DNA from: Methanobacteriota archaeon
GTDB taxonomy: Archaea; Thermoplasmatota; Thermoplasmata; UBA10834
Assembly (NCBI GenBank): GCA_020725925.1
Contig: DYTN01000002.1
Coordinates: forward strand, 44,621-108,620
DNA length: 64,000 nucleotides
Direction: 5' to 3'
The notes beneath the pieces are model-generated. The model saw nothing but the letters and a program-made list of their open reading frames with translations, was not told the DNA's origin and ran no database searches. The translations under genes were made by a program, and so were the position numbers. Positions 4,681 to 28,630 of this stretch are shown in pieces. Position 1 is the stretch's first letter. The number at the start of each line of letters is the position of its first letter.

Positions 4681-4691
4681 GGAGGAAGACG

Positions 4692-8406: not shown

Positions 8407-8410
8407 CAGG

Positions 8411-10236: not shown

Positions 10237-13200
10237 CTACTGGTTCTCCTCGTCGCCGCCTTCCTCGCCCTCTTTCTTCTCCTCGGCGCCCAACGGCGTC
10301 TTTATGATCTTCTTGGGCACGACCTTGCGGTCGATCGGTCTCCTGATGACCATCCTCGGAGCGGCTGCCGGGGGCACTGCCGGTGGCGCACCAGCCTCCC
10401 TCTCCGCTGGAGCTGCTGGCTCCACTGCAGCCGGTGCCGTGGGCGGTGGGCCCCTGCGCACAGGCGGTGGGGCGGCTCTCTCGGCGCCGAACACGGTGCC
10501 GCACTTGTGGCACACGGTGGCCTCCTTCGGGTTTAGCGTTCCGCAGACCGGGCACGGGATCGGCCCCTCCTTCTTCTTCTCCTCTTCCTTGGCGAGCCAG
10601 TCCTCGAAGCTGATGTACGCCGGCTGTCTCCTCCACCACTCCTCGAAGGCCCTGTCGGTGAACTTCTTGCCCAGCTCCGGCTTGGCGAGCTCACGGTACT
10701 TGGAGACCATGTCGTCGTACTGCTTCCTCATGCGCTCCAAGTAGTCCGCCTCCTCCTCGACCTCGCCGATGAACTTCACGCCACAGTTCGGGCACTCAGC
10801 GGACTCGGCGGGTATCCATGCGCCGCACTCGGAGCACTTCATCGTACCAGCTTCGAACTCCACGCCACACTTCGGGCACCTCTTGCTCGCAGCGGGTATG
10901 AACGCGCCGCACTCGCCGCACTCGACGAGCTTGCCGAGGCCATACACGTACGTGTATATGGTGAAGCCCGCGACGACGCCGACCACCGCCACTATGATCA
11001 CGATCCAGACCCACCACGGGAACAGGCCGCCCTCGACGGCCGCGCTGATGGTGACCGTCGTGGTGGCATCGTAGTTCTGGCCCAGCACGACCGTCCTCAC
11101 GGCATACGAGCCCGAGTCCAGCTCAGCGGGTATCCTCAGGAAGACTATGATGCTCCCGTCGGCGTCGGTCGTCTCGACCGTGCTGTTGGAGTAGGGCACG
11201 ACCAGCGGGTTGTCGGGGTCGCTCGGATCGATCAGCCAGAAGACCACTCCCGGCAGGCCCACCACGCCTTGGGACGTCCCCTGGTAAGTTATCGTGGCCG
11301 TGATGATCATGATGTCGCCGGCGTCGTACTCGTTCGCGTCGGTGGTCACGGTGACCGAGACCTGCAGCTGCTGTATCGTGAAGGTGTGGTTGGCGAAGTT
11401 GTTGGTCTCGTATGGCTCCGACACGGAGTAGGCCGGATCGAGCCAGACCCACAGCTCGTATTCTCCTGGCGTTGTGAGGTTGATCAGCCAGCTCACGGAG
11501 ATCAGAAGCACGTTGTCAGTCGCGTTGGCGGAGATGTTGTACTCCAGGCCGGTGTGTATCGTGTGGTTGTAGCCCGCAGCGTTCCTCACGCCGATCCGCA
11601 CCTCAAAGACGCTGACGACGCTGCCGCCCAGGTTGCGCACCCTGGCATTGACGGTCACGTTCCTCCCGAAGGTCTCGCCCGTGGTGTTGCTCCCGCCGCG
11701 CTGGACGAATATCTCGTCACCGTCGATCGACAGGTCCGCCCTGATGTCCAGCACGGTGATCGACCCTGTGAGGATGTTGTCCGCATAGGACTCCTCGATG
11801 CGGGACTGCTCGGGGTTGACTATCACGACGATGCTGGCAACGACACTCTGGGTGAGCACTGGGGCAGGGAACTCTATCTTGACCGGCCACTTCCCACTCT
11901 CAGATGTCAGGCTCACGATGACGGTCGTTGTCTTGAGCTCCGAGATGCCCGAGTAGTTGAAGTACACCCAGACCTCCGGGTTGGAGAACGGCATTGGGTT
12001 GGAGTTGCTGAGGTTCACTTCGACTGTGATTGTCTGGCCGCCAGCGACCGAGCCGGCAGGGGATATCTTGAGGTCCGTCAGCTTCAGGTCCGGATGCTCG
12101 TACACGTCGATGTAGACGTAGTCCCAGTTGTTCGTGGTGTACAGCTCCTCGACCCCGTCGGGCAGGCTGGCCACTACTGTGATCCAATGCAGCTCGGGCG
12201 TGGAAGGTGTCCACGGCATTGAGACGAACGTATAGGAGCCAGGAGCGATGCTCGGGATCGTCGTCGTCCCGACCAAGTCCCCTCCGTCGAAGATGTCCAC
12301 AGTCACATCGTAGCTGGTGTTGCTGCCGATGTTGCTTATCTTCGCGACCAGGGTCGTGGGAACATCGACTTCGACGTAGGTATCAGTCGCATAGATCCAT
12401 GGGTCCCACGGGTAGCCATCAGACACGTAGACGTCCGGGAGGCTCTTGACAGTGACGAACCCAGACCCAGTAGCTGGTGCTGTGTTGTTGAGCTCAGGGA
12501 TCGTGTCCAGCGGGTCGACGACAACGATGATTCTGTGCGCATTTGGGTCCAACGGGCTGTCAGCAGTCCAATACCACACAGCGGTGGCATTCGAGCCCGG
12601 CTCGATGACGGGTATCACCGTGGATCCGAAAAGCTCGTCCGACTCAGGGATTCCGTTGTCCCAAGCGTCGTCGTAGAAGTCCACCCTGACATCATATGCC
12701 CTCGCGATACCGTCATTGTGAATGTTGGCGTACACGGTGACGTTCTGCCCAATCCTGGGGTACACAGGGTCAGTCCAAACAGGCACCGGAGGATCATGCA
12801 CTGCCAAGTCCGGCAACGCATCCTCGATGGTCACTGTCAGGTAGGTCACGTTTCTCCCGAGGGGAGTCGTGTAGGGCAGGACGCTCGTCGAAACCTCGCC
12901 GTCGGGGTAGTAGTTCTGCGAGTTGAACGTGTAGGTCACGTTCACCCAGTAGTTGCCCACGTAGCCTTCTGTCGGTCCTGCGCTCGTCAATCTCTGCGCG
13001 AGCGCGTTCACCTTGGCGACACCAAGCGCATCAGGTGCGGAGCTGCTCACAGCAGAGCTTGCGTTTATGCCACTGATGTAGTACCTCGCGGTCACCAAGG
13101 CGCCTGGCAAAGGCTTGCCGACACCGTCCAGGACGGTGACATGTATCCATCTGTATATCAGAGCCGCTGCGTCGCGCTCGACTGTTATGGAGGGAGCGCT

Positions 13201-15408
13201 TGTGTTCGTGAACTCGCCGACTGTGGTTCCAGACAGGATGGGAGCGGCCTGAAGGTCAGAGTCCTTGACGATGATGCTTGCATTGGAGTCCCATTCGGAA
13301 GTGATGACCTTGTCAATCGCCGAGTTCACGATCAGGACTTGAGCGTTCTCGCGGGCCACGATGCTCACACCGACCAGCGATGAATTCAGCACCTGGAGCC
13401 TGCCCTCACCCTGGACGATTATGTCGATCGGCAACGCACTAGACATCGTGGATCCTTCGAACACGAGGAGTGCGGGGTTCGACAGAGTCCCGTCGACGTA
13501 GACCGTCCTCTGGTTCGCGGAGGTCTGCACTATCTGGAAGACCGCGTTCGTGAACCTGAGCGTGCCACCTGCGGCGACGATCGTGTCGCCAGCGTGGTAG
13601 TACGTCATATCGTATATGTGCAAGGAGGGCGGGACAACCAGCCACCTGGCTGGGTCAGGGCTCTCAGCGGATGCCCCCAGCAATGACACGGTTACATCAT
13701 CGCTCTGATCCGAAGCTGTCATAGCTGGATAAGCGTCAAGAGAGAAGGTTTCTGTCGACGAGTAGTTGATAACGCCAATCATTGCACTTCCCGTGATAGC
13801 ATAGGAGCCGACGTAGAGCGATTCGGGGATACCGGCATTCGTGATTATGTCAGAGAGATACGGTATCGCGGCTCTACCATCTGACTTTGTGACGTTGAAT
13901 GTTAGGGCAGTCTCTCCCATATAGCCAAGGACCTCAGGAGGCGGGCTCATGGACAGCCCCGTCGGAGTATAATAGAAGGCTTGCTCGCCCTGGAGCTCGG
14001 TGATTCCCGTGAAATGAGCAACAACGGAGGCACCTTCAATTGGAACGCCATACTCATCTCCCACGGTGACATTCAACCATCTGTAGATGAAGGCATCAGC
14101 ACCGACGGTGAACTCGACTCCGATCCAGTCAAACTCCACGAAACCAGTGCCGACACCGCCGTTGTTCTCGAACCGCACATTGAGTTCCATTATGTCTGCG
14201 ACAGTTGGCACAGCTCCCAACGGTAGGTCAAAGGACATCAGAGTCCCAGGTGGGTCAGTCACACGCGGGATAACGCTAGAATCAGAGTAGACCCCTGACT
14301 CCGGACTCCACTGAATGGCAGCAGTCCCAGCATATGTAGGGGCGACAGAGTACTCCCCAATGACGGAGGCGGAACTCACTGAAAGCGCCGGAGCTAGAGT
14401 GCCGATATCCCATGTGTCAACCTCAAGTATCATTGTCGGCTGCACTTGGATTGTAGAACCGTCGTCGAGCCTGATATTTCCGATTGGCTGACCGGTGTTG
14501 TCATCTCCTCCTTGAGCAAGAGGAACTGCCGTTTGTAGACTACCACCAAGAGAAACCACTGCTGGCGCCCGGTCCGCAAGAGCGCCTGCATACGTCTCGA
14601 AAGATGTGCCATACAAATACGCGTGAGACAGATCATCCAACGCGAGGGTGTTGTGCACATACCAGTGCCCAAGCGTTATCGCAGGTCCGAAGTCCACAGC
14701 GAGGAAACTGTTGACTGCCAACAGGGTCGAGTCCCCGTTCAGCGTGATGTTCTTGGCGAACTGGGCATTCGTCGGATACTCGGGAAGGTCCAATATGCTC
14801 GAGTCGTACAGCTCCAACGTCGAGTCCGTGAGCGTTATCGCCGGCCCGTCATCCGCCGAATCGTAGGTTATGGCACCGCTCGACCCGACGACATACTGGG
14901 AGACGAGCTCTCCCGGCAACGCATGAATCGTGCACTCGTCCAGGGACATCGTGCCGCCGTTCACCAGGGTGATGTTCCCGGGGAACATGAACTCCGATAG
15001 GGCAGAAGCCTCTACCACACCGCCGTCCACAGTGAGCTCGAGGAACGGCCACGGGTTGATCTGGTCCAAGTAAGTGGTTATGACGCCGTGGTCCAGAGTG
15101 AGCGTCCCACCTGCGAACACGGTGATGGAGTGCTTCAATGTCGGGTCGTTGTTGCTGATGACGCTCAGGGTGGCGTCCCTGACTATCAGCGTACCCCCGC
15201 TCCTGACCTCCACGTCGCCGTCGATGGGCTGTTCGATGTTCTCGATGACGTAGGTCTCGTTCTCGACGATCAGGTCGCCCTCGGCGGCTTCCGTTGTCGG
15301 GGCGCCCGAGAGGAACAACAGCCCCGCGAACGCAGAGAACACAAGACTCACGACAACCAAAGCACTCAGAGTTCTATTGGCAAGGAGCATGTCAGCTTTG
15401 CCCTTCAT
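10237..15408 (-). CDS. Giant cell-surface protein (~1720 aa): signal peptide, right-handed beta-helix-like region, several CARDB-like Ig-fold domains, C-terminal TM helix, and a cytoplasmic tail carrying three zinc-ribbon motifs, a Pro/Ala-rich stretch and an acidic tail.
   Basis: - ORF 10237..15480; likely start ATG 15408 (MKGKADMLLANRTLSALVVVSLVFSAFAGLLFL).
- Repeated NxT sequons and beta-strand-rich repeats.
- CARDB-like blocks (PDLAVHDPPVP..VTVYANIHNDG..; PDVYVSDGYPW..; ADLSIDGDEIFVQRGG..).
- C-terminal TM helix WWVWIVIIVAVVGVVAGFTIYTYV.
- Cytoplasmic tail: CGECGAFIPAASKRCPKCG, CSECGAWIPAESAECPNCG, CPVCGTLNPKEATVCHKCG. Confidence 0.8.
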   Translation of the reverse strand: MKGKADMLLANRTLSALVVVSLVFSAFAGLLFLSGAPTTEAAEGDLIVENETYVIENIEQPIDGDVEVRSGGTLIVRDATLSVISNNDPTLKHSITVFAGGTLTLDHGVITTYLDQINPWPFLELTVDGGVVEASALSEFMFPGNITLVNGGTMSLDECTIHALPGELVSQYVVGSSGAITYDSADDGPAITLTDSTLELYDSSILDLPEYPTNAQFAKNITLNGDSTLLAVNSFLAVDFGPAITLGHWYVHNTLALDDLSHAYLYGTSFETYAGALADRAPAVVSLGGSLQTAVPLAQGGDDNTGQPIGNIRLDDGSTIQVQPTMILEVDTWDIGTLAPALSVSSASVIGEYSVAPTYAGTAAIQWSPESGVYSDSSVIPRVTDPPGTLMSFDLPLGAVPTVADIMELNVRFENNGGVGTGFVEFDWIGVEFTVGADAFIYRWLNVTVGDEYGVPIEGASVVAHFTGITELQGEQAFYYTPTGLSMSPPPEVLGYMGETALTFNVTKSDGRAAIPYLSDIITNAGIPESLYVGSYAITGSAMIGVINYSSTETFSLDAYPAMTASDQSDDVTVSLLGASAESPDPARWLVVPPSLHIYDMTYYHAGDTIVAAGGTLRFTNAVFQIVQTSANQRTVYVDGTLSNPALLVFEGSTMSSALPIDIIVQGEGRLQVLNSSLVGVSIVARENAQVLIVNSAIDKVITSEWDSNASIIVKDSDLQAAPILSGTTVGEFTNTSAPSITVERDAAALIYRWIHVTVLDGVGKPLPGALVTARYYISGINASSAVSSSAPDALGVAKVNALAQRLTSAGPTEGYVGNYWVNVTYTFNSQNYYPDGEVSTSVLPYTTPLGRNVTYLTVTIEDALPDLAVHDPPVPVWTDPVYPRIGQNVTVYANIHNDGIARAYDVRVDFYDDAWDNGIPESDELFGSTVIPVIEPGSNATAVWYWTADSPLDPNAHRIIVVVDPLDTIPELNNTAPATGSGFVTVKSLPDVYVSDGYPWDPWIYATDTYVEVDVPTTLVAKISNIGSNTSYDVTVDIFDGGDLVGTTTIPSIAPGSYTFVSMPWTPSTPELHWITVVASLPDGVEELYTTNNWDYVYIDVYEHPDLKLTDLKISPAGSVAGGQTITVEVNLSNSNPMPFSNPEVWVYFNYSGISELKTTTVIVSLTSESGKWPVKIEFPAPVLTQSVVASIVVIVNPEQSRIEESYADNILTGSITVLDIRADLSIDGDEIFVQRGGSNTTGETFGRNVTVNARVRNLGGSVVSVFEVRIGVRNAAGYNHTIHTGLEYNISANATDNVLLISVSWLINLTTPGEYELWVWLDPAYSVSEPYETNNFANHTFTIQQLQVSVTVTTDANEYDAGDIMIITATITYQGTSQGVVGLPGVVFWLIDPSDPDNPLVVPYSNSTVETTDADGSIIVFLRIPAELDSGSYAVRTVVLGQNYDATTTVTISAAVEGGLFPWWVWIVIIVAVVGVVAGFTIYTYVYGLGKLVECGECGAFIPAASKRCPKCGVEFEAGTMKCSECGAWIPAESAECPNCGVKFIGEVEEEADYLERMRKQYDDMVSKYRELAKPELGKKFTDRAFEEWWRRQPAYISFEDWLAKEEEKKKEGPIPCPVCGTLNPKEATVCHKCGTVFGAERAAPPPVRRGPPPTAPAAVEPAAPAEREAGAPPAVPPAAAPRMVIRRPIDRKVVPKKIIKTPLGAEEKKEGEEGGDEENQ

Positions 15409-15521
15409 AAGTTCACCAACCCAGAGATGCTGGGTACTGCGGGAGAAGTAAGCAGTTCGGCCATATAAAAAGGTATTCACCAGGTTTTCATGTCGGAGCA
15501 GACTGTTTTTCGGCAGTCTGG

Positions 15522-16517
15522 CTAACCGCTTTTTCGCTTCACTATTTTCTTGACAAATATCTGCGGTTTCCTCGTCTCCGAGGGCTTGTCAGAGACATCT
15601 TCCGAGCCGACCTTCACCTCGAGCTTCGTCAGCGATTCCTTGATGTTCACGCCGCAGGCGTAGCACATCAGGGCGTCCCGGCTGACCATCGTCTTGCAGT
15701 TGAGGCAGGGGATCTCTTCATCCTCGGACCCCTCCTCTGCCTTCACGGGCTCGCCGAACTCCTCCTCGCGTATCTTCTGCCCGCAGGCGTAGCACATGAT
15801 CGCGTCCTTGCTGATCACGGTCCTGCAGCCGGGGCAGAGCATCTCGTCCTCGCTCAGCGTGGCTGCGAGCGCGGGCTCGGGCTCAATCCTGACCGGCGCG
15901 GCTGCCACCTTGGTCAGCATGTCCTTCTGGCGGTCCAGGAGCTTCCTCGCGTCCTCCGAGAGCTTCTCCCTGTCGCGCCTGAGGGACTCCTCCTCCTCCG
16001 CGAGCGCGCGCTCCCTCGCGACGAGCGTGTCCCTCCGGGCAGTGATCTGCTCGAGCACCCGCTGGATCTCCTCCTCGGACTTCTTCAGCAGGTCCTCCCT
16101 GCTCAGGAGCCTCTTCCGCCTTTCGGTCACATCCGCCTGGAGGGTGTTGATCTCCGCAAGCCTGTCCGAGGCGTCCTTCTCCCTCGCCTCCGCAGACGTG
16201 ACCGCCGCCTTCGATACCGCCTCGAGCTTGGCTAGCTCGGCGGCCCTCGAATCAAGCTGGCCCGCCCTCTCCTTAAGGGATGACTCCTGTCTCTTGAGTT
16301 CCTCAACGCGCGCCTCGACCGAGGATTCCTTCTGCCTGATCGAATCCTCCTTCTCCCTGAGGCGCTGCTCGAGCGCCTCGACCTCGGACTTCTGCTTCAG
16401 GACGTCCTCGCGCTCCGCCTTGAGCTCGAGGTCCTTCTTCCTGACCTCGGCCTCCTGGGTCTTGAGGCGCTTGACCGCGTCCTCGATTATCTGGGAGATC
16501 GTCTGGTCTTCTGCCAT
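15522..16517 (-). CDS. Coiled-coil protein with two C-terminal zinc ribbons (DZR-type).
   Basis: - ~230 aa of Glu/Lys/Arg/Leu-rich heptads.
- Then CPGCRTVISKDAIMCYACG and CLNCKTMVSRDALMCYACG.
- Followed 80 nt later, on the same strand, by a KaiC-like gene. Confidence 0.7.
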   Translation of the reverse strand: MAEDQTISQIIEDAVKRLKTQEAEVRKKDLELKAEREDVLKQKSEVEALEQRLREKEDSIRQKESSVEARVEELKRQESSLKERAGQLDSRAAELAKLEAVSKAAVTSAEAREKDASDRLAEINTLQADVTERRKRLLSREDLLKKSEEEIQRVLEQITARRDTLVARERALAEEEESLRRDREKLSEDARKLLDRQKDMLTKVAAAPVRIEPEPALAATLSEDEMLCPGCRTVISKDAIMCYACGQKIREEEFGEPVKAEEGSEDEEIPCLNCKTMVSRDALMCYACGVNIKESLTKLEVKVGSEDVSDKPSETRKPQIFVKKIVKRKSG

Positions 16518-16596
16518 CGCTCACCACTTGGGATGGTTCGGGCGAACGCTTCCTCACGCATATACGTTGTGGACTACTACAAAGTTTTGCCGCGCG

Positions 16597-17313
16597 CTAC
16601 GGCGCGCTCATGAGCGGGCCGAGCACCTGGATGCCGTTCCTCCCGACCTCGATCGCGTGCCTTTCCATCGAGTGCTCCGAAGCCCTCATCTTCTCCACCT
16701 GCAGGAACCTCACGAGCTTCCCACGCTGCCTGTCCAGGCCGAGCATCAGTATGCCGTCCGCGAGGAAGCCCTCGTTGCCCAGGAGCTGGCTCTCGCCCGA
16801 GAGCGAGCGCTCCATTATGATGAAGCATGTCAGGTTGTTGTCCCTGATCATCTTGAAGAAATAGAACATCTTCTTGCGCATGTCGCTCACGTTCTCCATG
16901 AGCGAGTAGAGCGCGCCGAGCGAGTCGAGGACGAATATCGAGAACTTGTCCCCGTGGGTCTTCTTGAAGCGCTGGATCATCTTCTCGATGAAGAGGACGT
17001 AGTCGGTCTGCGCCTCCTGGCCTATGACCTCGTCTATCTGGTCGACCTCCCTGAGGTCGGTCAGGTCCGAGATCTGCATCTTCATCGAGAGCTTCGCGCC
17101 TACGCTGTCCATGTTCTTCAGGTGGCTGTCGACCGTCTCCTCCAGGGTGGTGTACAGCCCGAACTCGTTCTTGTCTTTGAGGTAGCTGCTCATGAGAGAA
17201 TAGCAGAATGTGGTCTTCATCGAGCCCGGGGGTCCAGTGACCAAGACGACCTTCGGCCGGTCGATGTCGTTCTTGAAGACCTTCTCCAAGCCCGGAACAG
17301 AATCCTTGAACAA
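16597..17313 (-). CDS. KaiC/RecA-superfamily single-domain (pseudo)ATPase (COG0467-like).
   Basis: - TTG start 7 nt after AGGAGG.
- VVLVTGPPGSMKTTFCYSL..FVLDSLGALY..CFIIMER matches the KaiC-like fold.
- P-loop has Met in place of the second Gly. Confidence 0.75.
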   Translation of the reverse strand: MFKDSVPGLEKVFKNDIDRPKVVLVTGPPGSMKTTFCYSLMSSYLKDKNEFGLYTTLEETVDSHLKNMDSVGAKLSMKMQISDLTDLREVDQIDEVIGQEAQTDYVLFIEKMIQRFKKTHGDKFSIFVLDSLGALYSLMENVSDMRKKMFYFFKMIRDNNLTCFIIMERSLSGESQLLGNEGFLADGILMLGLDRQRGKLVRFLQVEKMRASEHSMERHAIEVGRNGIQVLGPLMSAP

Positions 17314-17437
17314 AGTCGAAACCTCCTGAGGGGGGAACGATGCTCAGACGCTTGCGCTTTTCAATGGAATCGTGTCTATTAAACCTTTCCGGGCCATTAT
17401 CATAACTGAAACGATTGCCAGGAGCTGTGCCAGGACC

Positions 17438-20036
17438 TCACTCAGCGTCGTCCTCGGAGCCCTCATCCCCGTCGTCTGACCCCTTCTCTCCGGGCTCGTC
17501 CTCGTCAACCATGTCGCCGTTCGGCGCAGGGCAGCTGGTCAGCGTGCGCCCCGACTCTATCGTCCGCTCCTCCTCGGATGCGCCGACGAGGCGGGCGACG
17601 GCACTGATGGTGTCCCCCTCCTTGAGCTTCATCAGGCGCACGCCCATGGTGTTCCTGCCGAGGACGCTGATTCCCGAGACAGGCATGCGGATGACCATCC
17701 CGTAGACGCTCGTGACGATGAGCTCGTTCTCGTCCTTCACGGCCTTGACGGTGACGACGTCCCCGTTCCTGCCGCCCGTCTTGATCGTGATGACGCCCTT
17801 GCCGCCCCTGCGTATCTTCCTGTACTCCTCCACTGTGGAGCGCTTCCCGTAGCCGTTCTCAGTCACCGTCAGGAGCTGGTCCTTCGAGTCGACCACGGCC
17901 ATGCTGACGACCTCGTCGCCCTTCTGGAGCCTGACGCCCCTGACGCCGTACGTGGCCCGCCCGGTCGGCCGGACATCGCTCTCCATGAACCGCGCGGCGA
18001 GGCCCTTCTTGGTGGCCAGTATGATCTCCTTCGACCCGTCCGTGATGGACGTGTCGACGACCGAGTCGCCCTCGTCCAGCTTGATGGCGATTATGCCGCT
18101 CTGCCGGACGTGCGAGTACGCCGAGAGCCTCGTCTTCTTGATGGTCCCGTTGGCCGTGGCGAACACGAGGTAGCTGTCGTCCGTGAAGAGCTTCACGGGT
18201 ATCGTGTTCACGACCTTCTCGCCGTCCTCTAGGTGCTCGAGCAGGTTCACGACGGGCTTGCCCTTGGCGTGCCTGCCGGCCGCGGGGATCTTGTACGCCT
18301 TGAGCCAGTAGACCCTGCCCTTGTTGGTTATGTACATCACGTAGTCGTGAGAGCATGTGATGAACAGGTCGACGACGTAGTCCTCTTCCTTGGTCTCCAT
18401 ACCCATGAGCCCCACGCCGCCCCTGTGCTGGCGCTCGTATGTGTCGAGCGGTAGGCGCTTGATGTAGCCTGTGTTGCTGATCATCACGACCACGTCCTCG
18501 ACCGGTATGAGGTCCTCGATGTCCATGTCGATCGCGTTGGCCTCGATGGTCGTGCGCCTGGCGTCCCCGAACTGCTTCTTGACAGCCAGCACCTCGTCCT
18601 TGATGACGCCCAGGATCTTCTTCTCGTCCTTGAGTATCGATTTGAGCTCGTCTATCAGCTTCTTCGTGGCGTCGGCCTCGTCCCTGACTGCCTGCATCTC
18701 CATCCCCGTCAGCCGCTGCAGCTGCATCTCGAGGATTGCCTTGGTCTGCTCCTCCGACAGGAGGTACTTGGCCATCAGGGAGTTCCTGGCCTCGTCCCGA
18801 GTCTTGGCCTTCCTGATGATCCTGATGACATCGTCCAGGTGGTCGAGCGCGGTCATGAGGCCCGCGAGGATGTGCGCGCGCTTCTCCGCCTCCCTGAGCC
18901 TGTGCTCCGTCCTCCGCTTGACGACATCGAACCTGTGCTCGACGTAGTACTCGAGCATCTCCTTGAGCGAGAGCACCCTGGGCTGGTTGTTCACGAGCGC
19001 GAGGTTGAATTATGCCGAAGGTCGTCTGGAGCTGCGAGTGCGCGAACAGCTGGTTCAGCACGACCTCCTCGATCGCGTCCTTCTTCAGCTCGATGACTAT
19101 CCGCATGCCCTCCTTGTCGGACTCGTCCCTGAGGTCGGAGATGCCTTCGATGCGCTTCGACTTCACCAGCTCGGCGATCTCCTCGAGCAGGGTGGACTTG
19201 TTGACCATGTAAGGTATCTCCGTGACCACCAGTTGCGCCTTGCCGGAGTCCTCGTCCCTCTCGATGGAGTACCTGGCGCGGATGCGCATCCTGCCCTTGC
19301 CGGTGGCGTACGCCTCCGCAATCCCCTGGGCACCGTAGATGACGCCCCCAGTGGGGAAGTCCGGGCCCTTCACGATCTCCATGAGGTCCCTGAGCTCCGG
19401 GTCCTTGCCCTGGATCTGCATGTCGACCATGAGCGCGACCGCGTCCACGACCTCGCCGAGGTTGTGCGGCGGGATGTTCGTGGCCATCCCGACGGCGATG
19501 CCCTGGGAGCCGTTCACGAGCAGGTTGGGGAGCTTCGCAGGCAGCACGAGCGGTTCCTTGAGGGTGCCGTCGAAGTTGTCTGTGAAGTCGACCGTCTCCT
19601 CGTCGACGTCCTTGAGCATCTCCGCGGCGATGGCCGAGAGCCTGCACTCGGTGTACCTCATCGCGGCGGCGGAGTCGCCGTCCACGCTCCCGAAGTTCCC
19701 TTGGCCGTCAATGAGCGGGTAGCGCATGGAGAACTCCTGGGCCATGCGGACGAGGGTGTCGTAGATGGCCATGTCGCCGTGCGGGTGGAACTTGCCCAGC
19801 ACCTCACCGACGACCCGCGCGGACTTCTTGTGGGCCTTGTTGTGGCCCAGGCCCATCTCGTTCATCGCGAACAGGATGCGCCTGTGGACCGGCTTGAGCC
19901 CGTCGCTGACATCGGGGAGCGCGCGACCGACTATGACGCTCATGGCATAGTCGATGTACGACTTCTTCATCTCGATCTCGATGGGCCTCTGGACAAGCCT
20001 GGTCGCGATGTGTGGCTCCTCGGTTGCGTCGACCAT
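17438..20036 (-). CDS. gyrA: DNA gyrase subunit A, interrupted by a single-nucleotide frameshift near 19005-19012.
   Basis: - N-terminal part (from 20036) carries the GyrA catalytic region: AAMRYTE, GNFGS, PHGD.
- This frame ends at ..TTFGII.
- The remainder ([20 protein letters not shown].. through the six-bladed beta-pinwheel C-terminal domain) is in another frame, ORF 17438..18994. Confidence 0.9.
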
Positions 20037-20046
20037 CCGATATCAC

Positions 20047-22191
<2,145 letters not shown>

Positions 22192-22332
22192 TCAGCCCAC
22201 CCTTGACAGGAATTGACATGATGCCTCTAGCGCGCACGGGGCCCCGGAACGCATCCTGCTGGCCAAGGGCATCTCCATCGCCCTCAATCAAAGGCTTTAT
22301 ACCGACGAGGCAATTAGTGGCCCAGGACACTG

Positions 22333-23598
22333 ATGAGAGGCGCCAAGGGCAGTTCTTTTCCACAGGAAATGAAGGGGATTTCGAAAGACGAGGGGGTTGA
22401 GCCAGACAAGCTAGCCCGACTACTAAAGGCCGGGAGGGCCGTAGTTCCTTCGAACCCGAGGCACAGGGGCCTCAGACCCTGCGCGATAGGCGAGGGGCTC
22501 AGGGTGAAGGTCAACGCGAACATAGGCACCTCGCGGGACTACATCGACCTGAAGGAGGAGCTGGAGAAGCTCAGGGTGGCCGTGAGGTATGGCGCTGACG
22601 CGGTCATGGACCTCAGCACGGGCGGTGACATCCGGGAGATCCGACGGAACATCGTCAAGAACAGCAGGGTGCCTGTCGGGACAGTGCCCATCTACGAGGC
22701 TGTGTGCAAGAGCTCCTCGAAGGGCGGGGCGATGAACATGACGGGGGACGACCTGTTCTCGGCCATTGAGCGACACGCGAAGGACGGTGTCGACTTCATG
22801 ACCGTCCACTGCGGGGTCACGAAACGGACCGCTGGCTCGTTGAAGAAGCACAAGAGGGTCACGGGCGTGGTCTCGAGGGGCGGGGCGATGCTCATCGCTT
22901 GGATGCGGGAGAACGGCAAGGAGAATCCCCTGTTCGAGGACTACGGCTACCTGCTCGAGCTGGCGAAAGAGCACGAGTTCGCCCTGAGCCTGGGCGACGG
23001 GCTCAGGCCGGGCAGTGTCCACGATGCCACCGACGTTCCCCAGCTGCACGAGCTGCTCGTCTTGGGGAAGCTGGTCGAGAGGGCCAGGAAGGCTGGGGTC
23101 CAGGTGATGGTCGAGGGGCCAGGGCACGTGCCGTTGAACCAGATCGAGGCCAACGTCCGGGTGGAGAAGGTGCTGTGCAAGGGTGCGCCGTTCTACGTCC
23201 TCGGGCCGCTGGTGTGCGATGTTGGCGCGGGCTACGACCACATCACCGGTGCGATAGGAGGGGCCCTTGCGGCGTACTTCGGGGCCGATTTCCTGTGCTA
23301 CGTGACGCCCTCGGAGCACCTCTCGCTTCCCACGGTAGAGGACGTGCGCCAGGGGGTCGTGGCGAGCAAGATCGCCGCCCACGCGGCCGACCTTGCGAGG
23401 GGCAGGGAGATGGCCTGGGACCTCGAGATGTCGAAGGCGAGGAAGGCCTTCGACTGGCAGAAAATGTACAGGCTATCGGTCGACCCGGAGAGGGCAAAAG
23501 AGGTCCGGACCAGACGAGGTTCGAAGAGCCCTCAGGTCTGCTCGATGTGCGGCGACCTCTGCGCGATGAAGATCGTGGACGACATGCTCGGACAATGA
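22333..23598 (+). CDS. thiC: Phosphomethylpyrimidine synthase ThiC (short archaeal form).
   Basis: Full-length match to ThiC signatures: GTVPIYEA, HCGVT, EGPGHVPLNQI, DVGAGYDHITGAIGGA, CSMCGDLCAMK. Confidence 0.9.
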   Translation: MRGAKGSSFPQEMKGISKDEGVEPDKLARLLKAGRAVVPSNPRHRGLRPCAIGEGLRVKVNANIGTSRDYIDLKEELEKLRVAVRYGADAVMDLSTGGDIREIRRNIVKNSRVPVGTVPIYEAVCKSSSKGGAMNMTGDDLFSAIERHAKDGVDFMTVHCGVTKRTAGSLKKHKRVTGVVSRGGAMLIAWMRENGKENPLFEDYGYLLELAKEHEFALSLGDGLRPGSVHDATDVPQLHELLVLGKLVERARKAGVQVMVEGPGHVPLNQIEANVRVEKVLCKGAPFYVLGPLVCDVGAGYDHITGAIGGALAAYFGADFLCYVTPSEHLSLPTVEDVRQGVVASKIAAHAADLARGREMAWDLEMSKARKAFDWQKMYRLSVDPERAKEVRTRRGSKSPQVCSMCGDLCAMKIVDDMLGQ

Positions 23599-23603
23599 GC
23601 CGT

Positions 23604-24554
23604 TCAGAGCGACAGGCCCATCGGGAGGCGCATGACGGCTCCGACCAGGAGGTACACGATCCCGGCCGCGATGACGGCCAGGATCTCTGAAAGCACGGCC
23701 TCCCCCGTGGAGATGTCGTTCGCAACGCTGATGGCTCTGCTTGCGATTGTGACGAGCCACACCAGGCCGACCAGGGCGATGAGCAACAGGACGCCGCCCG
23801 CGGCGATTGCCTGGTCGAGCTCATCAGGGGTCCAATCCTGGACATCTGTCATGTCGAGGCCCTGGAACCCCACGGTGAACAGCACCAAGAGCACGATCTC
23901 CAGGAACACGTATGCAGGGTAGACGTAGCCGAGGAGGGTGAGGGTGGCCGTACGCTCACCCCTCCCGCCGAAGATGTTCTTGGCGATTACCGCGGCAGCG
24001 ACGCCGAACAACAGGAAGGCGAGCAGCGAGATCACCCAGCTGACGAATCCCTGGAATGCAACCTCCAGCGCGTCGCCCGTGCTGTATCCCAGCACCTCGC
24101 CCATGTCGGCCGTCACGAGCGTGCTCACCACTGCGGACAGGATCGAGAACACGACGACGATGGCCAAAGCCCTCTGGAGGTTGGTGGACAGGTAGAGCGA
24201 CACGCAGGCCTTGGTGGGAGAGTACAGGATCCTGACGAGGTCCGCGAAGTCCGGCCTCGGCGCGTGCTTCGGCTGCATGTAGAGCCCGGGGTAGTGGCTG
24301 ATGTGGACGTGCGGATGCGCGGGCGAATGGAAATCCGAAGGCGGTATCTGTTCGACGAAGTGCGCGGGGAGCGCCTGCCTGATGGTGGTGCCGCACCTCG
24401 GGCAGTTCGTGACGCCGGTCCCATCCCCCAACGACTGGAGATAGCCAGACGCTCTGAACCCGCACGACGGACATGCGATGTCGTGCGCATACACGACGGA
24501 CTCTGGGATCATGCCTTGGGCCAATCGTGTCCAGAGGATATGATTGTTGCCCAC
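23604..24554 (-). CDS. Yip1-family multi-pass membrane protein with an N-terminal double zinc ribbon.
   Basis: - N-terminus CPSCGFRASG...CPRCGTTI.
- Then 5 TM helices with a Yip1-like pattern. Confidence 0.65.
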   Translation of the reverse strand: MGNNHILWTRLAQGMIPESVVYAHDIACPSCGFRASGYLQSLGDGTGVTNCPRCGTTIRQALPAHFVEQIPPSDFHSPAHPHVHISHYPGLYMQPKHAPRPDFADLVRILYSPTKACVSLYLSTNLQRALAIVVVFSILSAVVSTLVTADMGEVLGYSTGDALEVAFQGFVSWVISLLAFLLFGVAAAVIAKNIFGGRGERTATLTLLGYVYPAYVFLEIVLLVLFTVGFQGLDMTDVQDWTPDELDQAIAAGGVLLLIALVGLVWLVTIASRAISVANDISTGEAVLSEILAVIAAGIVYLLVGAVMRLPMGLSL

Positions 24555-24573
24555 GGCCGTCGGGGAAAATCAA

Positions 24574-24675
24574 TGGAGCCACTGGAGGGTATTGAACCCC
24601 CGGCCTGCGGTTTACGAAACCGCCGCTCTTTAGCGGCACGCGCGAGAGCGTGTGCAACCGCTGAGCTACAGTGGC
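24574..24675 (-). tRNA. tRNA-Thr (anticodon CGU) with encoded CCA and a ~29-nt insertion (putative intron) in the D-loop region.
   Basis: - Reverse complement: acceptor GCCACUG/CAGUGGC + U + CCA.
- Anticodon arm GCGGU-UUCGUAA-ACCGC.
- T-arm GGGGG-UUCAAUA-CCCUC.
- D-stem GCUC...GAGC is interrupted by a GC-rich hairpin (GCACACGC-UCUC-GCGCGUGC). Confidence 0.55.
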
Positions 24676-24814
24676 AGGCAGGTTGTTGTGAAGATTGTCT
24701 TGCTAGTTAAGGCTTTTGACATTTGACTTGTTCGATTGGGCGCATCCAGTCACGCCGCGGGAGAAACGAATGTCTTTTTATGAGTGGCACATTATCTACC
24801 ACGGGTCGCCCTGA

Positions 24815-26974
24815 ATGGTCACAGACCTCCGCATACCTGAGGGAATCGTCGTCCGGACCGCAAAAGGCGGTTCGGAGTCGCTCAAGACGATATTGGCAGA
24901 CCTCAAGCAATACAGCTTCACCGGCTACGTCAAGGTCACTCTGGAGAAGGAGATAATGAGCTCCATCGGATACCTTGTCGTGGAGCAAGGCGTCCCCGTG
25001 ATGGCCATATACGAGTTCGAGAAGTCGAAGCCGAGGGAGCTCAAGAGGATATACACTGGTGAGAAGTCGCTCAGGTTCATCCTGGAGGATTCCCAGGACA
25101 AGGCATCGAACATCGAGCTGCACAGCAGGGTCCCGAGCGAGGAATTCGAGAGGCGGTTCCCAGACTCCCGCCTTGCCGAGGCCCCAGTGGCCGCAAGGCC
25201 CTCTAGGGCCGAGACCGAGCGCGTCATCGAGGAGGCCGTGGAGGAGCCGGAGCAGGTGGACGCGCAGCGCGAGATCATCGAGCTCTGGCGCAGGAAGGGC
25301 TTCAAGGTCGACACTCTGGAGGAGGCGCTTGAGGAGGGGCCGCAGGCGCTGACGACGGAGCTATCAGCGTTCGAGCAGGACGCCCAGAGGCTGAAGCAGT
25401 TCGAGGTCGTGCTCAACAACTTCCCCGTGCTCGGGCACGAGGAGGAGATCCAGGAGATCAGGACGAAGCTCGACGACCGCACGAGGATAGCGGAGATCGA
25501 ATCGGACGTCGAATTCCTCCAGGAGAAGATCCGCCGGAAGATCCAGAAGCGCAAGGCCGATGAGGAGTCCATCCGGCAGGAGATGGAGAAGAAGAGGCAG
25601 GAGGAGAAAGCTGCCGATGTCTACGACCTGATCCTGCGCTACCAGACGCAGCCCGAGGAACAGGTCGAGAAGAGGTGCCCGAGGTGCGGGGGGCCCGTGG
25701 GCCCGGACGGCAAGTGCCCGAAGTGCAGCGTGGCAGAGGAGGCGCCCGCGCCCAGCTTCGTGAAGCCCTTGCCGGAGGGCATGAGGTTCGACAACTTCGT
25801 CGTCGGCCCGGGCACCAAGTTCCCCGTGGCCGCAGCCGTCGCCGTCGCCGAAGCTCCCAGCAAGACCTACAACCCGCTGCTGCTGTTCGGAGGCTCGGGC
25901 CTGGGGAAGACCCACCTCATCACCGCGATCGGCATCCAGGTGAAGCAGAGGTCTCGGAACGCCAAGGTGAACTACGTGCCCGCGGACAGGTTCGTCGAGG
26001 CGATCGGGCAGGCCCAGGACGACGCCCTGAGGAAGAGGATCCGGGAGGACCTGAAGCGCTCGGACCTCCTGCTGGTCGACGACATGCAGTTCCTCGCGGC
26101 CAACGAAAACGCCCAGCTGGAGATGGCGCAGGTCATCGAATACCTGATAGATGCAAAGAGGCAGGTCGTGTTCGCGAGTGACAGGCTCCCGGCGCAGCTG
26201 CCTGGCTTCAGCGACAGGCTCAACTCCCGCATAATGCTCGGGCTAACAACGGACCTCCCACCGCCCGACATGGACACGAGGGTGAAGATACTGAGGATGA
26301 AGGCCCAGGAGAAGGGCCTGAAGCTCAGCGACGAGATCATCGGCTACATCGCCGAGAGGGTCACGACGAACGTCAGGGAGCTGGAGAGCACGCTCACCAA
26401 GATTGTCGCCTTCTCATCGATAATGAAGCTCGACGTGGACCTGAACCTCGTCTCCGACATACTGAAGCCCTTGGCCCCCGTCCAGGAGACGAGGAAGGAG
26501 ATCATGAAGGAGGTCAAGGCGTCGCCAGGGCACTGCTACATGATAGAGGAGGAGAGGCCGCTGTACAGCAACGTCCTCCTCGGCAGGAAGATGGACGAGG
26601 GCTGTGCCGGCCTGGTCATCACCCGCCTCAACCCCAAGCGCCTGAGGGACGAGTTCAAGGTCGCCCCCGAGATACTCTGGCTCACGGACAAGGAGAGCTC
26701 CCAGGAGAAGACCGTCCCACCGTCGCTCGAGATGCTCATCCACACGATCCAGGAGTTCATGGAGACCGAGGAGAAGGGCATGATCGTCCTGGACGGCCTC
26801 CAGTACCTCGTCAGCAGCACCAACTTCGAGGCCGTGCTCAGGTTCCTCAGGAGCCTGATTGACGAGATCTCGGAGTCGAACTGCATACTCGCGCTGTCGA
26901 TCAGCCCCGAGACCCTGAAGCCGCAGGAGGTCTCCATCCTCGAGCGGGAGATGGAGGTCCTCAACCTCACTTGA
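24815..26974 (+). CDS. DnaA-family AAA+ ATPase (domain III/IIIb complete; no DnaA domain IV) embedded in a novel archaeal architecture: DUF4388-like N-terminal domain, acidic linker, internal zinc ribbon, DnaA-like AAA+, C-terminal DUF835/KaiC-like P-loop-less domain.
   Basis: - Walker A NPLLLFGGSGLGKTHLITAIG.
- Walker B LLLVDDMQFL.
- SDRLP..FSDRLNSRIMLGL, with the arginine-finger Arg retained.
- Box VIII/sensor II TTNVRELESTL.
- Collinear with E. coli DnaA residues ~130-370 at roughly 35-40% identity.
- Zinc ribbon RCPRCGGPVGPDGKCPKCS lies just N-terminal of the AAA+ core.
- C-terminal 170 aa (HCYMIEEERP..GLVITRLNP..IVLDGLQYLV..) resembles the DUF835-like gene at 46785..47381. Confidence 0.8.
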   Translation: MVTDLRIPEGIVVRTAKGGSESLKTILADLKQYSFTGYVKVTLEKEIMSSIGYLVVEQGVPVMAIYEFEKSKPRELKRIYTGEKSLRFILEDSQDKASNIELHSRVPSEEFERRFPDSRLAEAPVAARPSRAETERVIEEAVEEPEQVDAQREIIELWRRKGFKVDTLEEALEEGPQALTTELSAFEQDAQRLKQFEVVLNNFPVLGHEEEIQEIRTKLDDRTRIAEIESDVEFLQEKIRRKIQKRKADEESIRQEMEKKRQEEKAADVYDLILRYQTQPEEQVEKRCPRCGGPVGPDGKCPKCSVAEEAPAPSFVKPLPEGMRFDNFVVGPGTKFPVAAAVAVAEAPSKTYNPLLLFGGSGLGKTHLITAIGIQVKQRSRNAKVNYVPADRFVEAIGQAQDDALRKRIREDLKRSDLLLVDDMQFLAANENAQLEMAQVIEYLIDAKRQVVFASDRLPAQLPGFSDRLNSRIMLGLTTDLPPPDMDTRVKILRMKAQEKGLKLSDEIIGYIAERVTTNVRELESTLTKIVAFSSIMKLDVDLNLVSDILKPLAPVQETRKEIMKEVKASPGHCYMIEEERPLYSNVLLGRKMDEGCAGLVITRLNPKRLRDEFKVAPEILWLTDKESSQEKTVPPSLEMLIHTIQEFMETEEKGMIVLDGLQYLVSSTNFEAVLRFLRSLIDEISESNCILALSISPETLKPQEVSILEREMEVLNLT

Positions 26975-26998
26975 CCGGCAAAGAACACAGCTGAGGGT

Positions 26999-28630
26999 TC
27001 ACGCGGCCTTCTTCATCATCTCTTTGAACTCGCGCATCTCCCTGACGGCCTGGGCGTAGTCCCCTGACTTCATGAGGTTCGTGGCGGACTTGAGGACGGT
27101 GAGCATCGGGGTGATGTTCACGTTCCTGACCTTGGCCTCGAGGAGGTCGTCCCTTGCCTTCTTCATCTCCTCGTTCATGCGCGAGGGGATGGCCTTGCCC
27201 AGGCTCTCGTTGGCCGCCCTGACCGTGTTGTCCATCTTGTCAAAGTCCTTCTGGTCGAGGGCCTTCTGGGCGTCCAGGAGCAACCGCCTGGCCTCCTTCG
27301 TGTCGACGATGAACAGCTCGCAGTCCGAGACGAACTGCCTCAGGCCGGTGATCTTCTTCTTCGATTCGTTGTACCTGCCCGTGATCGGCAACAGCTCCTT
27401 CGAGACCTTGTCGGCGTAGACGAACGCGGCCTCGATGTCCCCCGAGGAGCGGGCCCTCGCGACCTCTTGGATGTATGTGGTCGCCCTGGAGATGTCCCCT
27501 CCGAAATCACGGGCTATCTTGATCTCCTCGTTCAGTTGGATTATGCTCTGCGCGAGATGCGCATCGATCCTCCCCATGAGGACCGTCTTGGATTTCTGAA
27601 CGAGCTCGATGGCCTTGTCTATCTGCCTGTCCCTTCCCGCCTCGGCCGCCTCGTCAATGAGCTGCTTGCTCTCCCCGATCTCGACCTCCTTCTCCCTGGC
27701 GACGGCGAGAAGCGGTTTCATCTCTGCGACCATCCTCGCGAGGTCCCTGCCCTTATCCCTGACAGGGGGCGCGGCTGGGACGGCAGGGGCGGGCGCCGGC
27801 GTCGGAGCCTCCTTGACAACTCTCACGGCAGGCGCAGGTGGTGCTGGTGCAAGTGCCGGAGCGGGCTTCTCCTTCACGACGGGCTTCTCTGGCTTCGCAG
27901 GCGCAGGCTTCGGTGCCGGCTCTGGCTCCTTCTTGCCCAGCTTCCACCGGCCGAACAGTCCCTTCTTCTCCTCGGCCTTGGGCTCCGGGGGAGCGGCTTT
28001 CTCCACCCTCTTCGGCGGCGCCTTCACCTCTTCGACGGGCGCCTCGATCTCCATCTTCGGAGTGGGTGCGGCAGGCGCGGCCTCCTCGGGCTCGACAAAC
28101 ACCGCCCCGCAGCCAGGACATGACTCCGCATCCATGCTGACGAGCGTGTTGCACGCGGGGCACTGGAACATGTCGGCCCCCTCCTCCGCGAAGAGCACTC
28201 CGCACTTGGGGCACGCGGTCGCCGTGGTCTCGACGGTAGCGCCACACTGCGGGCACTCGAAATACTCGACCGCAGCCGGCTCCTCGACGGGCTTCTCCTC
28301 GGCCACGGGTGCGACCTGCACGACCGGAGCAGGCTTCGGGGGCTCGGCTCTCACGAGCTCCGGCGGCTTGGGCGGGGGCTGTGCGACAGGAGGCGGTGCC
28401 GGCGCCTCTCGTTGAGGTGGTGGCCTCGAGAGTATCTCGTCCACCCTAGCCTCGACCGACAACTTCGGCGGGGGCGCAGGCGCGGGCGCGGGCTCAGGGG
28501 CCTTCTTAGGTGGCTCTAGGTCTATCTCAAATATGGACAGGTCGGTCCCGCAGAACCCGCATTTCTTCGATCCGGGCTGAAGCGGAGAGTCGCAGATCGG
28601 ACAGAGCCTATCTCCGCTGGATTCTGGCAA
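26999..28630 (-). CDS. Multi-zinc-ribbon protein with Pro/Ala-rich linkers and a C-terminal alpha-helical repeat domain.
   Basis: - TTG start 9 nt after AGGAGG.
- N-terminus CPICDSPLQPGSKKCGFCG, CPQCGATVETTATACPKCG, CPACNTLVSMDAESCPGCG.
- (PAPA)n low-complexity stretches.
- C-terminal ~270 aa of helical repeats. Confidence 0.65.
   Translation of the reverse strand: MPESSGDRLCPICDSPLQPGSKKCGFCGTDLSIFEIDLEPPKKAPEPAPAPAPPPKLSVEARVDEILSRPPPQREAPAPPPVAQPPPKPPELVRAEPPKPAPVVQVAPVAEEKPVEEPAAVEYFECPQCGATVETTATACPKCGVLFAEEGADMFQCPACNTLVSMDAESCPGCGAVFVEPEEAAPAAPTPKMEIEAPVEEVKAPPKRVEKAAPPEPKAEEKKGLFGRWKLGKKEPEPAPKPAPAKPEKPVVKEKPAPALAPAPPAPAVRVVKEAPTPAPAPAVPAAPPVRDKGRDLARMVAEMKPLLAVAREKEVEIGESKQLIDEAAEAGRDRQIDKAIELVQKSKTVLMGRIDAHLAQSIIQLNEEIKIARDFGGDISRATTYIQEVARARSSGDIEAAFVYADKVSKELLPITGRYNESKKKITGLRQFVSDCELFIVDTKEARRLLLDAQKALDQKDFDKMDNTVRAANESLGKAIPSRMNEEMKKARDDLLEAKVRNVNITPMLTVLKSATNLMKSGDYAQAVREMREFKEMMKKAA

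Follow-up and report, generated by a model that had tools for sequence, protein, structure and literature searches.

Zinc ribbons on six proteins of a Thermoplasmata locus: probably ordinary, independently kept docking domains and not a shared code

CPxCG-related zinc fingers, which contain two Cys/His pairs located 7-40 residues apart and at least one of the motifs CPxCG, CPxCx or CxxCG, are very frequent in archaea and were found in 8% of the small archaeal proteins (Tarasov et al. 2008, PMC2253796). The proteins described there are stand-alone proteins of less than 100 amino acids and were proposed to be regulators. The ribbons grouped in the Pfam families DZR (PF12773), Zn_ribbon_3 (PF13248) and Zn_Ribbon_1 (PF13240), which belong to the zinc beta-ribbon superfamily, consist of two CxxC knuckles separated by some 10 residues; they are short, often in tandem and terminal, and are carried by many unrelated scaffolds. 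Much the same can be said of the ribbons studied here, which belong to six proteins encoded by a 64,000-nucleotide stretch of a Thermoplasmata genome (contig DYTN01000002.1; the whole stretch is hereafter called the window). In contrast to the small proteins of Tarasov et al., they are accessory parts of large multidomain proteins: protein A (341-2755, + strand), a giant CARDB surface protein or adhesin (10237-15408, -), the coiled-coil protein B (15522-16517, -), a Yip1-domain membrane protein (23604-24554, -), a DnaA-like ATPase (24815-26974, +) and a Pro/Ala-rich protein (26999-28630, -).

Among the described systems, the closest in anatomy are two experimentally studied archaeal proteins that carry ribbons on disordered linkers. 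The N-terminal zinc finger of ArnA from Sulfolobus acidocaldarius (PDB 8s05, 5a8i), which has the pattern CxxC-x10-CxxC and is tethered by some 70 disordered residues, docks weakly, over about 500 Å2, on ArnB in the regulation of the archaellum (PMC12852372). CdpC from Haloferax volcanii (HVO_0399, DUF7093) possesses two ribbons connected by a disordered linker of 243 residues; its C-terminal ribbon domain binds FtsZ1 while the other ribbon is associated with membrane binding, and remote multi-ribbon relatives of CdpC have been reported in all Thermoplasmatota classes (bioRxiv 10.64898/2026.07.16.738847). Zinc ribbons are also known among the cytoplasmic accessory components of archaeal type IV pili, which include KaiC-family ATPases, a membrane protein with an N-terminal zinc ribbon (arCOG07264), a double zinc ribbon protein (arCOG06883) and a coiled-coil protein (arCOG07564) (Makarova, Koonin & Albers 2016, PMC4858521).

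The window has a G+C content of 62%, with a G+C content at third codon positions (GC3) of about 0.85-0.9, and heuristic gene calling delineates about 47 genes. A scan of their translations with the regular expression CxxC-x(n)-CxxC detected 13 in-frame ribbons with four cysteines (C4), 11 of which are carried by the six proteins. Protein A has a single N-terminal ribbon (nt 371-424, +) with a spacer of 10 residues (x10). The adhesin has three x10 ribbons (nt 10867-10920, 10783-10836 and 10501-10554, -), all included in its last 230 residues, after the transmembrane helix, and B has two x10 ribbons in its C-terminal third (nt 15783-15836 and 15654-15707, -). The single ribbon of the Yip1 protein is N-terminal with a spacer of 19 residues (nt 24393-24473, -), that of the DnaA-like protein lies in the linker preceding the AAA+ ATPase domain with a spacer of 9 residues (nt 25676-25726, +), and the Pro/Ala-rich protein harbours three x10 ribbons (nt 28550-28603, 28202-28255 and 28109-28162, -). 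The spacer is exactly 10 residues long in 9 of the 11 ribbons. The initial annotation, which had attributed one to three ribbons with spacers of 8-12 residues to each of six proteins, had thus identified the right carriers, but the x19 spacer of the Yip1 protein falls out of this range and the interval proposed, 15522-28630, spans four of the six proteins only. The terminal or linker location that it had noticed is true of every ribbon.

These ribbons are more than chance matches, since cysteine accounts for 1.0% of residues only, since the four off-frame matches of the scan lack any CPxCG signature, and since the cysteines are kept across orthologues. The off-frame matches belong to wrong-frame open reading frames (ORFs) whose GC3 is 0.22-0.67, compared with 0.72-1.00 for the in-frame ribbons. 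The only other ribbon genes of the window encode NMD3 (39525-40559) and the C-terminus of TiaS (63688-63960), in which the ribbons are integral to well-known enzymes. Hidden small zinc-finger genes were also considered and rejected, as the intergenic DNA of the window contains no C4 ORF.

Direct reading of the sequences shows that all 11 ribbons agree with the definition of CPxCG-related zinc fingers. Their assignment to Pfam families is less uniform. Three proteins exceed the gathering thresholds: the adhesin tail (DZR, 34.2 bits for a cut-off of 27.3; Zn_Ribbon_1, 32.1 for 25; Zn_ribbon_3, 27.7 for 27), protein B (Zn_ribbon_3, 37.4 bits; DZR, 35.7 bits) and the Pro/Ala-rich protein (Zn_ribbon_3, 54.9 bits; DZR, 42.7; Zn_Ribbon_1, 37.1). 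By contrast, A, the Yip1 protein and the DnaA-like protein, with one C4 ribbon each, match no Pfam ribbon model at threshold. The Yip1 protein shows sub-threshold matches to Zn_ribbon_8 (16.5 bits, cut-off 34.4) and Zn_ribbon_3 (15.3 bits, cut-off 27), and no ribbon family is detected in A or in the DnaA-like protein at E<=0.1; these three proteins are called ribbon carriers solely from their conserved C4 pattern. Each of them has a single CxxC...CxxC pair of knuckles.

Conservation of the ribbons was analysed in 18 to 58 orthologues per protein. The orthologues of the DnaA-like protein, which are 65-80% identical to it, come from 27 species-level genomes, all of them metagenome-assembled genomes of Thermoplasmata/Thermoplasmatota archaea. 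The order of the whole block is kept in the 27 genomes, in the 79 metagenome loci and in distant relatives found via the adhesin tail. On one strand, it begins with A, a gene of 148 codons, PilB1, PilC1, PilC2 and PilB2, and it continues with the convergent adhesin, B, KaiC, GyrA and GyrB, then with ThiC, Yip1, the DnaA-like protein, the Pro/Ala-rich protein, adenosine kinase, OGG and Lhr. In all 11 ribbons, the four cysteines and their position are kept in every orthologue. Indeed, both ribbons of B are found in 18/18 orthologues whose ribbon region lies inside the locus, the Yip1 ribbon in 26/26, that of the DnaA-like protein in 23/23 full-length orthologues, the three ribbons of the adhesin tail in 21/21, and all three of the Pro/Ala-rich protein wherever the locus includes the N-terminal region of the orthologue; the ribbon of A is present at the N-termini of the listed metagenome orthologues.

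Conservation extends beyond the cysteines. At non-Cys positions, the ribbons of the Pro/Ala-rich protein show an identity of 0.71-0.92 to the window sequence; the corresponding values are 0.37-0.41 for its linkers and 0.71 for its folded helical domain. For the adhesin tail, they are 0.70-0.72 (ribbons) and 0.22 (Pro-rich linker). Judging from these alignments, conservation within the host proteins peaks at the ribbons, whose non-Cys residues are under strong purifying selection; this argues for functional, presumably binding, surfaces over mere zinc staples. Each ribbon also keeps its own signature across the 18 to 58 orthologues. For example, CPxCxT[IVM][IV]SKDA[IV]MCY[AS]C occurs twice in B, the first ribbon of the Pro/Ala-rich protein reads CPICDSPLQPGSKKCxFC, and the three ribbons of the adhesin read CGECGAFIPAASKRCPKC, CSECGAWIPAESxECPNC and CPVCGTLNPKEATVCHKC.

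The nine x10 ribbons were compared through position profiles derived from their orthologues, using 22 non-Cys columns and shuffled columns as nulls. The strongest similarities connect tandem ribbons within one protein, i.e. the two ribbons of B (z=10.4), ribbons 2 and 3 of the Pro/Ala-rich protein (z=7.1) and ribbons 1 and 2 of the adhesin (z=7.1), which indicates internal duplications. Similarity between proteins is lower (z<=6) and is confined to positions that are generic in the family: Pro after the first Cys, Gly after the second and fourth Cys, a hydrophobic residue at +3 and Phe/Leu after the last Gly. This comparison of nine ribbons reveals neither a cassette that has spread recently nor a shared specificity-determining surface. 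The proposal of the initial annotation that the same small module recurs on unrelated scaffolds as a lineage-specific code is therefore not upheld on either count, as strong profile similarity is found only within proteins and as the domain family is ubiquitous in archaea. Its docking interpretation remains plausible, given the conserved non-Cys residues and the analogy with ArnA and CdpC.

The fold predicted for the ribbons agrees with this classification. In AlphaFold2 models of the Pro/Ala-rich protein and of the adhesin tail, short strand pairs are predicted at each ribbon, with a predicted local distance difference test (pLDDT) of 77-89, and the flanking linkers are of low confidence. The modelled ribbons superpose on those of RanBP2/NZF, L40e and ArnA with deviations of 0.7-1.6 Å over about 25 residues, with non-significant Foldseek E values (0.77-4.5). 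Foldseek searches of the PDB gave no match at E<=0.001 for either model, only ribbon superpositions and designed helical repeats, and profile searches of the PDB gave marginal ribbon matches alone (L32, L40e and ArnA). The RanBP2/NZF fingers obey the PROSITE pattern W-x-C-x(2,4)-C-x(3)-N-x(6)-C-x(2)-C. None of the ribbons of the window satisfies it: the leading Trp is absent from all of them, even though nine have the x10 spacer and the Asn is present, and invariant, in ribbon 3 of the adhesin (CPVCGTLN...).

The resemblance to ArnA and CdpC concerns the layout of the proteins. Among PDB sequences, the adhesin-tail profile matches ArnA best, in the region of ribbon 3, but this match is marginal (E=0.0011) and driven by the ribbon and a low-complexity linker; the ArnA ribbon superposes on a ribbon of the adhesin tail at 1.1 Å over 25 residues. 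Unlike ArnA, the proteins studied here have no FHA domain, and no gene for an ArnB/vWA partner was seen in the window. The Pro/Ala-rich protein shows the same beads-on-a-string layout as CdpC but differs from it by three ribbons and a helical domain of 250 amino acids, and no cell-division genes are adjacent to it; none of the six proteins matches the Pfam model of DUF7093, the only CdpC representation that was compared, at E<=0.1.

From these data, the most likely reading, to which we assign a probability of about 60%, is that the six proteins carry ordinary, independently kept C4 ribbons of the Zn_ribbon_3/DZR/CPxCG kind, each serving as a docking knob for a partner of its own host protein and not as a word of a shared code. 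Docking is favoured because ArnA and CdpC match the ribbon-on-linker anatomy. According to this reading, each ribbon would be old, vertically inherited and fixed in its host protein within the Thermoplasmata clade, and the double ribbons would derive from tandem duplications within a protein, with no spread of cassettes between proteins. The ribbon would be a knob of about 20 residues, made of two beta-hairpins presumably held by zinc, and would be presented in the cytoplasm at a protein terminus or on a disordered tether rich in Pro, Ala and Glu. Its conserved non-Cys surface might then dock weakly and specifically on the partner of the host protein, which is probably a protein; nucleic acid would be conceivable for A, which bears HhH motifs.

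Several considerations weigh against this reading. Zinc binding is assumed from the motif, and docking and its partners are what we infer from conservation and analogy. If the genome-wide frequency of ribbon genes is 5% or less, 6 out of 18 exceeds what independent generic domains would give and leaves room for a functional link among all six proteins; the estimate of the background itself relies on heuristic gene calls. Lastly, synteny is so conserved in this clade, where gyrBA, thiC and lhr are fixed too, that adjacency is weak functional evidence.

The density of ribbon genes is central to two other explanations. Six of the 18 genes of the first 28.6 kb encode ribbons, compared with 2 of the 29 genes in the rest of the window. 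When genes were called on all 106 loci retrieved and clustered, 5 of the 88 families devoid of any member in the window had ribbons; three of these are fragments or duplicates of window families, which leaves 2 out of about 84. The excess is real against the local background, since Fisher's exact test gives p=4e-4 for 6/18 against the whole background (4/113, about 3.5%) and p=0.027 against the rest of the window alone. A docking code shared by all six proteins, whose ribbons would bind one hub, such as a KaiC-like ATPase, an FtsZ/CetZ-like filament or nucleic acid, and recruit unrelated proteins to one site, would account for this enrichment. It would also fit the x10 spacing and CPxCG...CxxCG frame of 9/11 ribbons, the KaiC-like or DUF835 P-loop domains found on or beside three of the six proteins (A, the upstream neighbour of B and the DnaA-like protein) and the CdpC-like multi-ribbon proteins reported in all Thermoplasmatota classes. 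It is nevertheless very unlikely: the conserved non-Cys residues differ from one protein to another and coincide only at generic Pfam positions, the Yip1 and DnaA-like ribbons depart in geometry too, the family of CdpC is not matched, and the one additional peptide that is shared, described below, is limited to two proteins. Pure coincidence, i.e. ribbons so frequent in the proteome of the lineage that six in 28 kb are uninformative and imply no ribbon-based functional connection, deserves consideration but is also judged unlikely. CPxCG-type motifs are indeed very common in archaea, the block was selected a posteriori, the contrast with the rest of the window is modest, and, at an assumed genome-wide frequency of 10%, about 0.7 such 18-gene blocks would be expected per genome of 2000 genes. 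The local background that was sampled is lower than this, A, the adhesin and B belong to one conserved pilus/KaiC locus, and the peptide shared by the adhesin and B is highly specific, all of which speak against coincidence.

Two further possibilities concern the ligand of the ribbons. Nucleic-acid binding is a known property of zinc ribbons, with examples in TFIIB, TFIIS, ribosomal proteins and PriA; those of the window could similarly contact DNA or RNA and tie their host proteins to the chromosome or to transcripts. A possesses an (HhH)2 DNA-binding module in addition to its ribbon, the DnaA-like ATPase is encoded near gyrBA, and the closest sequence matches of the ribbons include L40e and L32. 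This explanation is scarcely probable, since the ribosomal matches are marginal (E 0.005 or weaker), the ribbons of the adhesin tail and of the Yip1 protein are tethered to the membrane, the flanking linkers are acidic or Pro-rich and not basic, apart from the separate basic peptide, and the best-studied archaeal analogues with flexible linkers bind proteins. As for rubredoxin-like sites that would coordinate iron or work as thiol redox switches instead of holding a structural zinc, C4 sites with CPxCG knuckles are also the signature of rubredoxins, and the Pro/Ala-rich protein has a weak rubrerythrin-like match in NCBIfam (E=5e-4, below cut-off). Such sites are extremely improbable here: no Pfam rubredoxin match, no aromatic rubredoxin core and no redox genes in the context were found, and the x10 spacing and short hairpins fit a zinc-ribbon/RanBP2-type geometry, with the non-significant Foldseek E values given above.

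The preferred reading, that of ordinary and independently kept ribbons, is in itself unsurprising. The kind of domain is well known, the six proteins are a new set of members, and the finding has a value for annotation by documenting the heavy use of a common archaeal accessory domain by an uncultured Thermoplasmata lineage. A narrower and more useful result is the existence of a large family of giant CARDB surface proteins with a highly conserved, three-ribbon cytoplasmic tail and a basic peptide, whose genes lie beside those of B, KaiC-like ATPases and a pilus-type secretion machine. An interaction between these parts, should it exist, would offer a testable example of an archaeal surface adhesin coupled to cytoplasmic ATPases. 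It would also add a third case to those of ArnA and CdpC, in a field where the functions of archaeal zinc ribbons are poorly understood.

The adhesin probably starts at the ATG at 15408 and not at the GTG at 15480; a database protein of 1723 amino acids (P0241) has its Pfam matches, which include CARDB, at coordinates identical to those of the product initiated at 15408. A TATA-like sequence recognized by eye, TTTTTATAT, is located about 50 nt upstream of this ATG, and the gene may have its own promoter. A hydrophobic stretch (10933-11025, -), predicted as a helix with a pLDDT of about 95, forms the putative transmembrane helix that divides the ectodomain from the cytoplasmic tail. In the model, this helix is followed by the double ribbon 1+2 (10783-10920, -; Pfam DZR, pLDDT 79-87), kept in 21/21 orthologues, by a helical bundle (10570-10752, -; pLDDT 94-96), in which the orthologue alignment reveals the conserved sequence ISFEDWLAKEEE, by ribbon 3 (10501-10554, -; invariant Cys and Asn, pLDDT 85-89), and by a disordered Pro-rich C-terminal segment containing the basic peptide RMVIRRPIDRKVVPKKIIKTP (10294-10356, -).

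A profile of the last 268 residues of the adhesin, searched against 1.84 billion proteins at E<=1e-30, retrieved 233 representatives, of 300-4500 amino acids, in which the match is always C-terminal. Among 137 representatives, 133 have at least three ribbons in their last 330 residues and none elsewhere, and 120 have a basic [KR][KR][IVL][IVLM][KR] motif, often repeated, in their last 80 residues. The hypothesis of a portable tail associated with diverse ectodomains was rejected, as 25 of 26 sampled proteins possess a CARDB ectodomain, which leads to consider them as one family. In the library of papers searched, none combines CARDB with a zinc ribbon, so that giant CARDB adhesins ending in ribbons appear to be undescribed there. 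One relative of the tail is a stand-alone protein of 276 amino acids (locus L108, 10001-10832), encoded by a chromosome of 4.2 Mb (CP070672.1) in a different context, near two genes of Arf/Ras/Roc-type small GTPases and a gene encoding an FG-GAP protein; translation of the stored locus does not yield the query protein.

The genes located next to the adhesin resemble components of type IV pili or archaella. The ribbon-free core (3849-10126, +) encodes two ArlI/PilB-like ATPases (3849-6446 and 8411-10126) and two TadC/PilC-like membrane proteins (6430-7470 and 7471-8406). Pfam detects T2SSE twice and T2SSF twice, so that ArlI/PilB and TadC/PilC are encoded together, and the two ATPases score 411 and 427 bits against the FlaI-like model of NCBIfam, under its equivalog cut-off of 550. 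No pilin or archaellin with a class III signal peptide and no prepilin peptidase were found in a general Pfam scan of the genes, no search being aimed at them. The N-terminal 280 residues or so of the first ATPase (3849-4700, +) are poorly conserved and, in many loci, tblastn matches start near residue 280, which suggests a variable extension. Between A and this ATPase, a gene of 148 codons (2784-3230, -) is kept in almost every related locus; it has no Pfam match and only a faint GvpA-like match in NCBIfam (E=0.009).

Upstream of this core, protein A associates its N-terminal ribbon with an (HhH)2 module, W-acidic repeats, a long coiled coil and a C-terminal KaiC-like/DUF7504 ATPase domain. 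Downstream, protein B consists of a coiled coil of about 200 amino acids, its two ribbons and a C-terminal basic peptide, KPQIFVKKIVKRK (nt 15531-15569). Directly upstream of B, a gene encodes a ribbon-free, stand-alone KaiC-like ATPase (16597-17313, -; Pfam KaiC, 116 bits), which adjoins B in all loci, including the distant locus L107. A homologue search with B retrieved three matches only, swamped by coiled-coil words. HP0958 of Helicobacter pylori also combines a coiled-coil hairpin with a zinc ribbon; a phmmer search of PDB sequences with B gave only a coiled-coil match (E=0.019) and did not match HP0958. The likeness to the accessories of archaeal type IV pili similarly lies in the kinds of components, i.e. 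a KaiC-like ATPase, a coiled coil and zinc-ribbon proteins beside ArlI/TadC-like genes; no literature joining DZR with KaiC was found. The two gene groups A-PilB-PilC-PilC-PilB and adhesin-B-KaiC are syntenic in more than 100 loci and in distant relatives. A, the adhesin and B are thus members of one deeply conserved pilus/KaiC-type locus and therefore probably work together, presumably within one pilus/KaiC-associated assembly.

The adhesin and B share more than their ribbons. The C-terminal end of B, KKPQ[IV]FVKKIVK[KR]K, is invariant in 18 orthologues, and the adhesin tail carries [RK]MVIRRPIDRKVVPKKIIKTP in 21/21 orthologues (...VVPKKIIK... in the window). The six-frame translation of the whole window contains two occurrences of KK[IV][IV]K, one in the adhesin tail and one in B. 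A wider distribution of this peptide was examined and rejected: 39 of the 43 matches to a relaxed motif, among ORFs of at least 100 amino acids in the 106 loci, belong to these two proteins. This KKI[IV]K-type peptide is all that the sequences offer in favour of a common docking element, and the link concerns just two adjacent proteins. Its ligand may be a shared partner or the membrane. Furthermore, A carries three to four conserved W-acidic repeats, [GS]L[AS]xWL[SA]G[DE][DE] (nt 710-868, +), and the conserved ISFEDWLAKEEE of the adhesin tail (nt 10579-10614, -), with FEDWLAKEEE, weakly resembles them; the W-acidic motif could be another short linear motif common to proteins of the locus.

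It can be proposed, tentatively and as a rather unlikely possibility, that a transmembrane coupling device is built from the adhesin tail, B and the KaiC-like ATPases next to them, and is attached to the nearby type-IV-pilus-like machine. In such a device, the ribbons and the peptide common to the tail and B (...PKK[IV][IV]K...) would serve as docking sites through which cytoplasmic ATPases could sense or control the adhesin, by inside-out or outside-in signalling. If so, the tail would be a previously undescribed, family-wide cytoplasmic signalling module, represented by at least 233 clusters at 50% identity.

Apart from adjacency, no evidence was found that ties the three other carriers to the pilus/KaiC system or to each other. 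The Yip1 protein is identified by its Pfam domain (PF04893, 32.3 bits for a cut-off of 28.6). The DnaA-like protein includes a Bac_DnaA domain (E=2.7e-48) and a C-terminal DUF835 domain (E=9.6e-30), which replaces the DNA-binding domain IV of DnaA; its score against TIGR00362 is 273 bits, lower than the equivalog cut-off of 343.9, for an alignment covering model positions 74-351 of 437. Its uncharacterised N-terminal domain looks PATAN/DUF4388-like by eye, and its gene, located about 2.6 kb from gyrB-gyrA, is kept in 27 species. The AlphaFold2 model of the Pro/Ala-rich protein displays three confident ribbons, ribbon 1 being separated by a disordered linker from the tandem ribbons 2 and 3, which are followed by a second disordered linker and by a confident, all-helical C-terminal domain (residues 293-542). 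This domain (26999-27754) has a pLDDT above 90 and a repeating pattern of long and short helices, and neither Foldseek nor sequence profiles gave a significant PDB match for it. The protein family comprises 225 clusters, and all source names that bear a taxon are those of Thermoplasmata-related metagenome-assembled genomes; judging from these names, it appears to be restricted to the Thermoplasmata clade.

An apparent frameshift just after ...TTFGII, near nt 18990-19010, divides gyrA of the window (17438-20036, -) into two ORFs that overlap (17859-20036 and 17438-18994). In a related locus (L002), gyrA is a single ORF of 869 amino acids; the split in the window is due either to a sequencing or assembly error or to a pseudogene. 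Two related loci obtained from long reads (L107 and L109) contain many frameshifts and are heavily fragmented.

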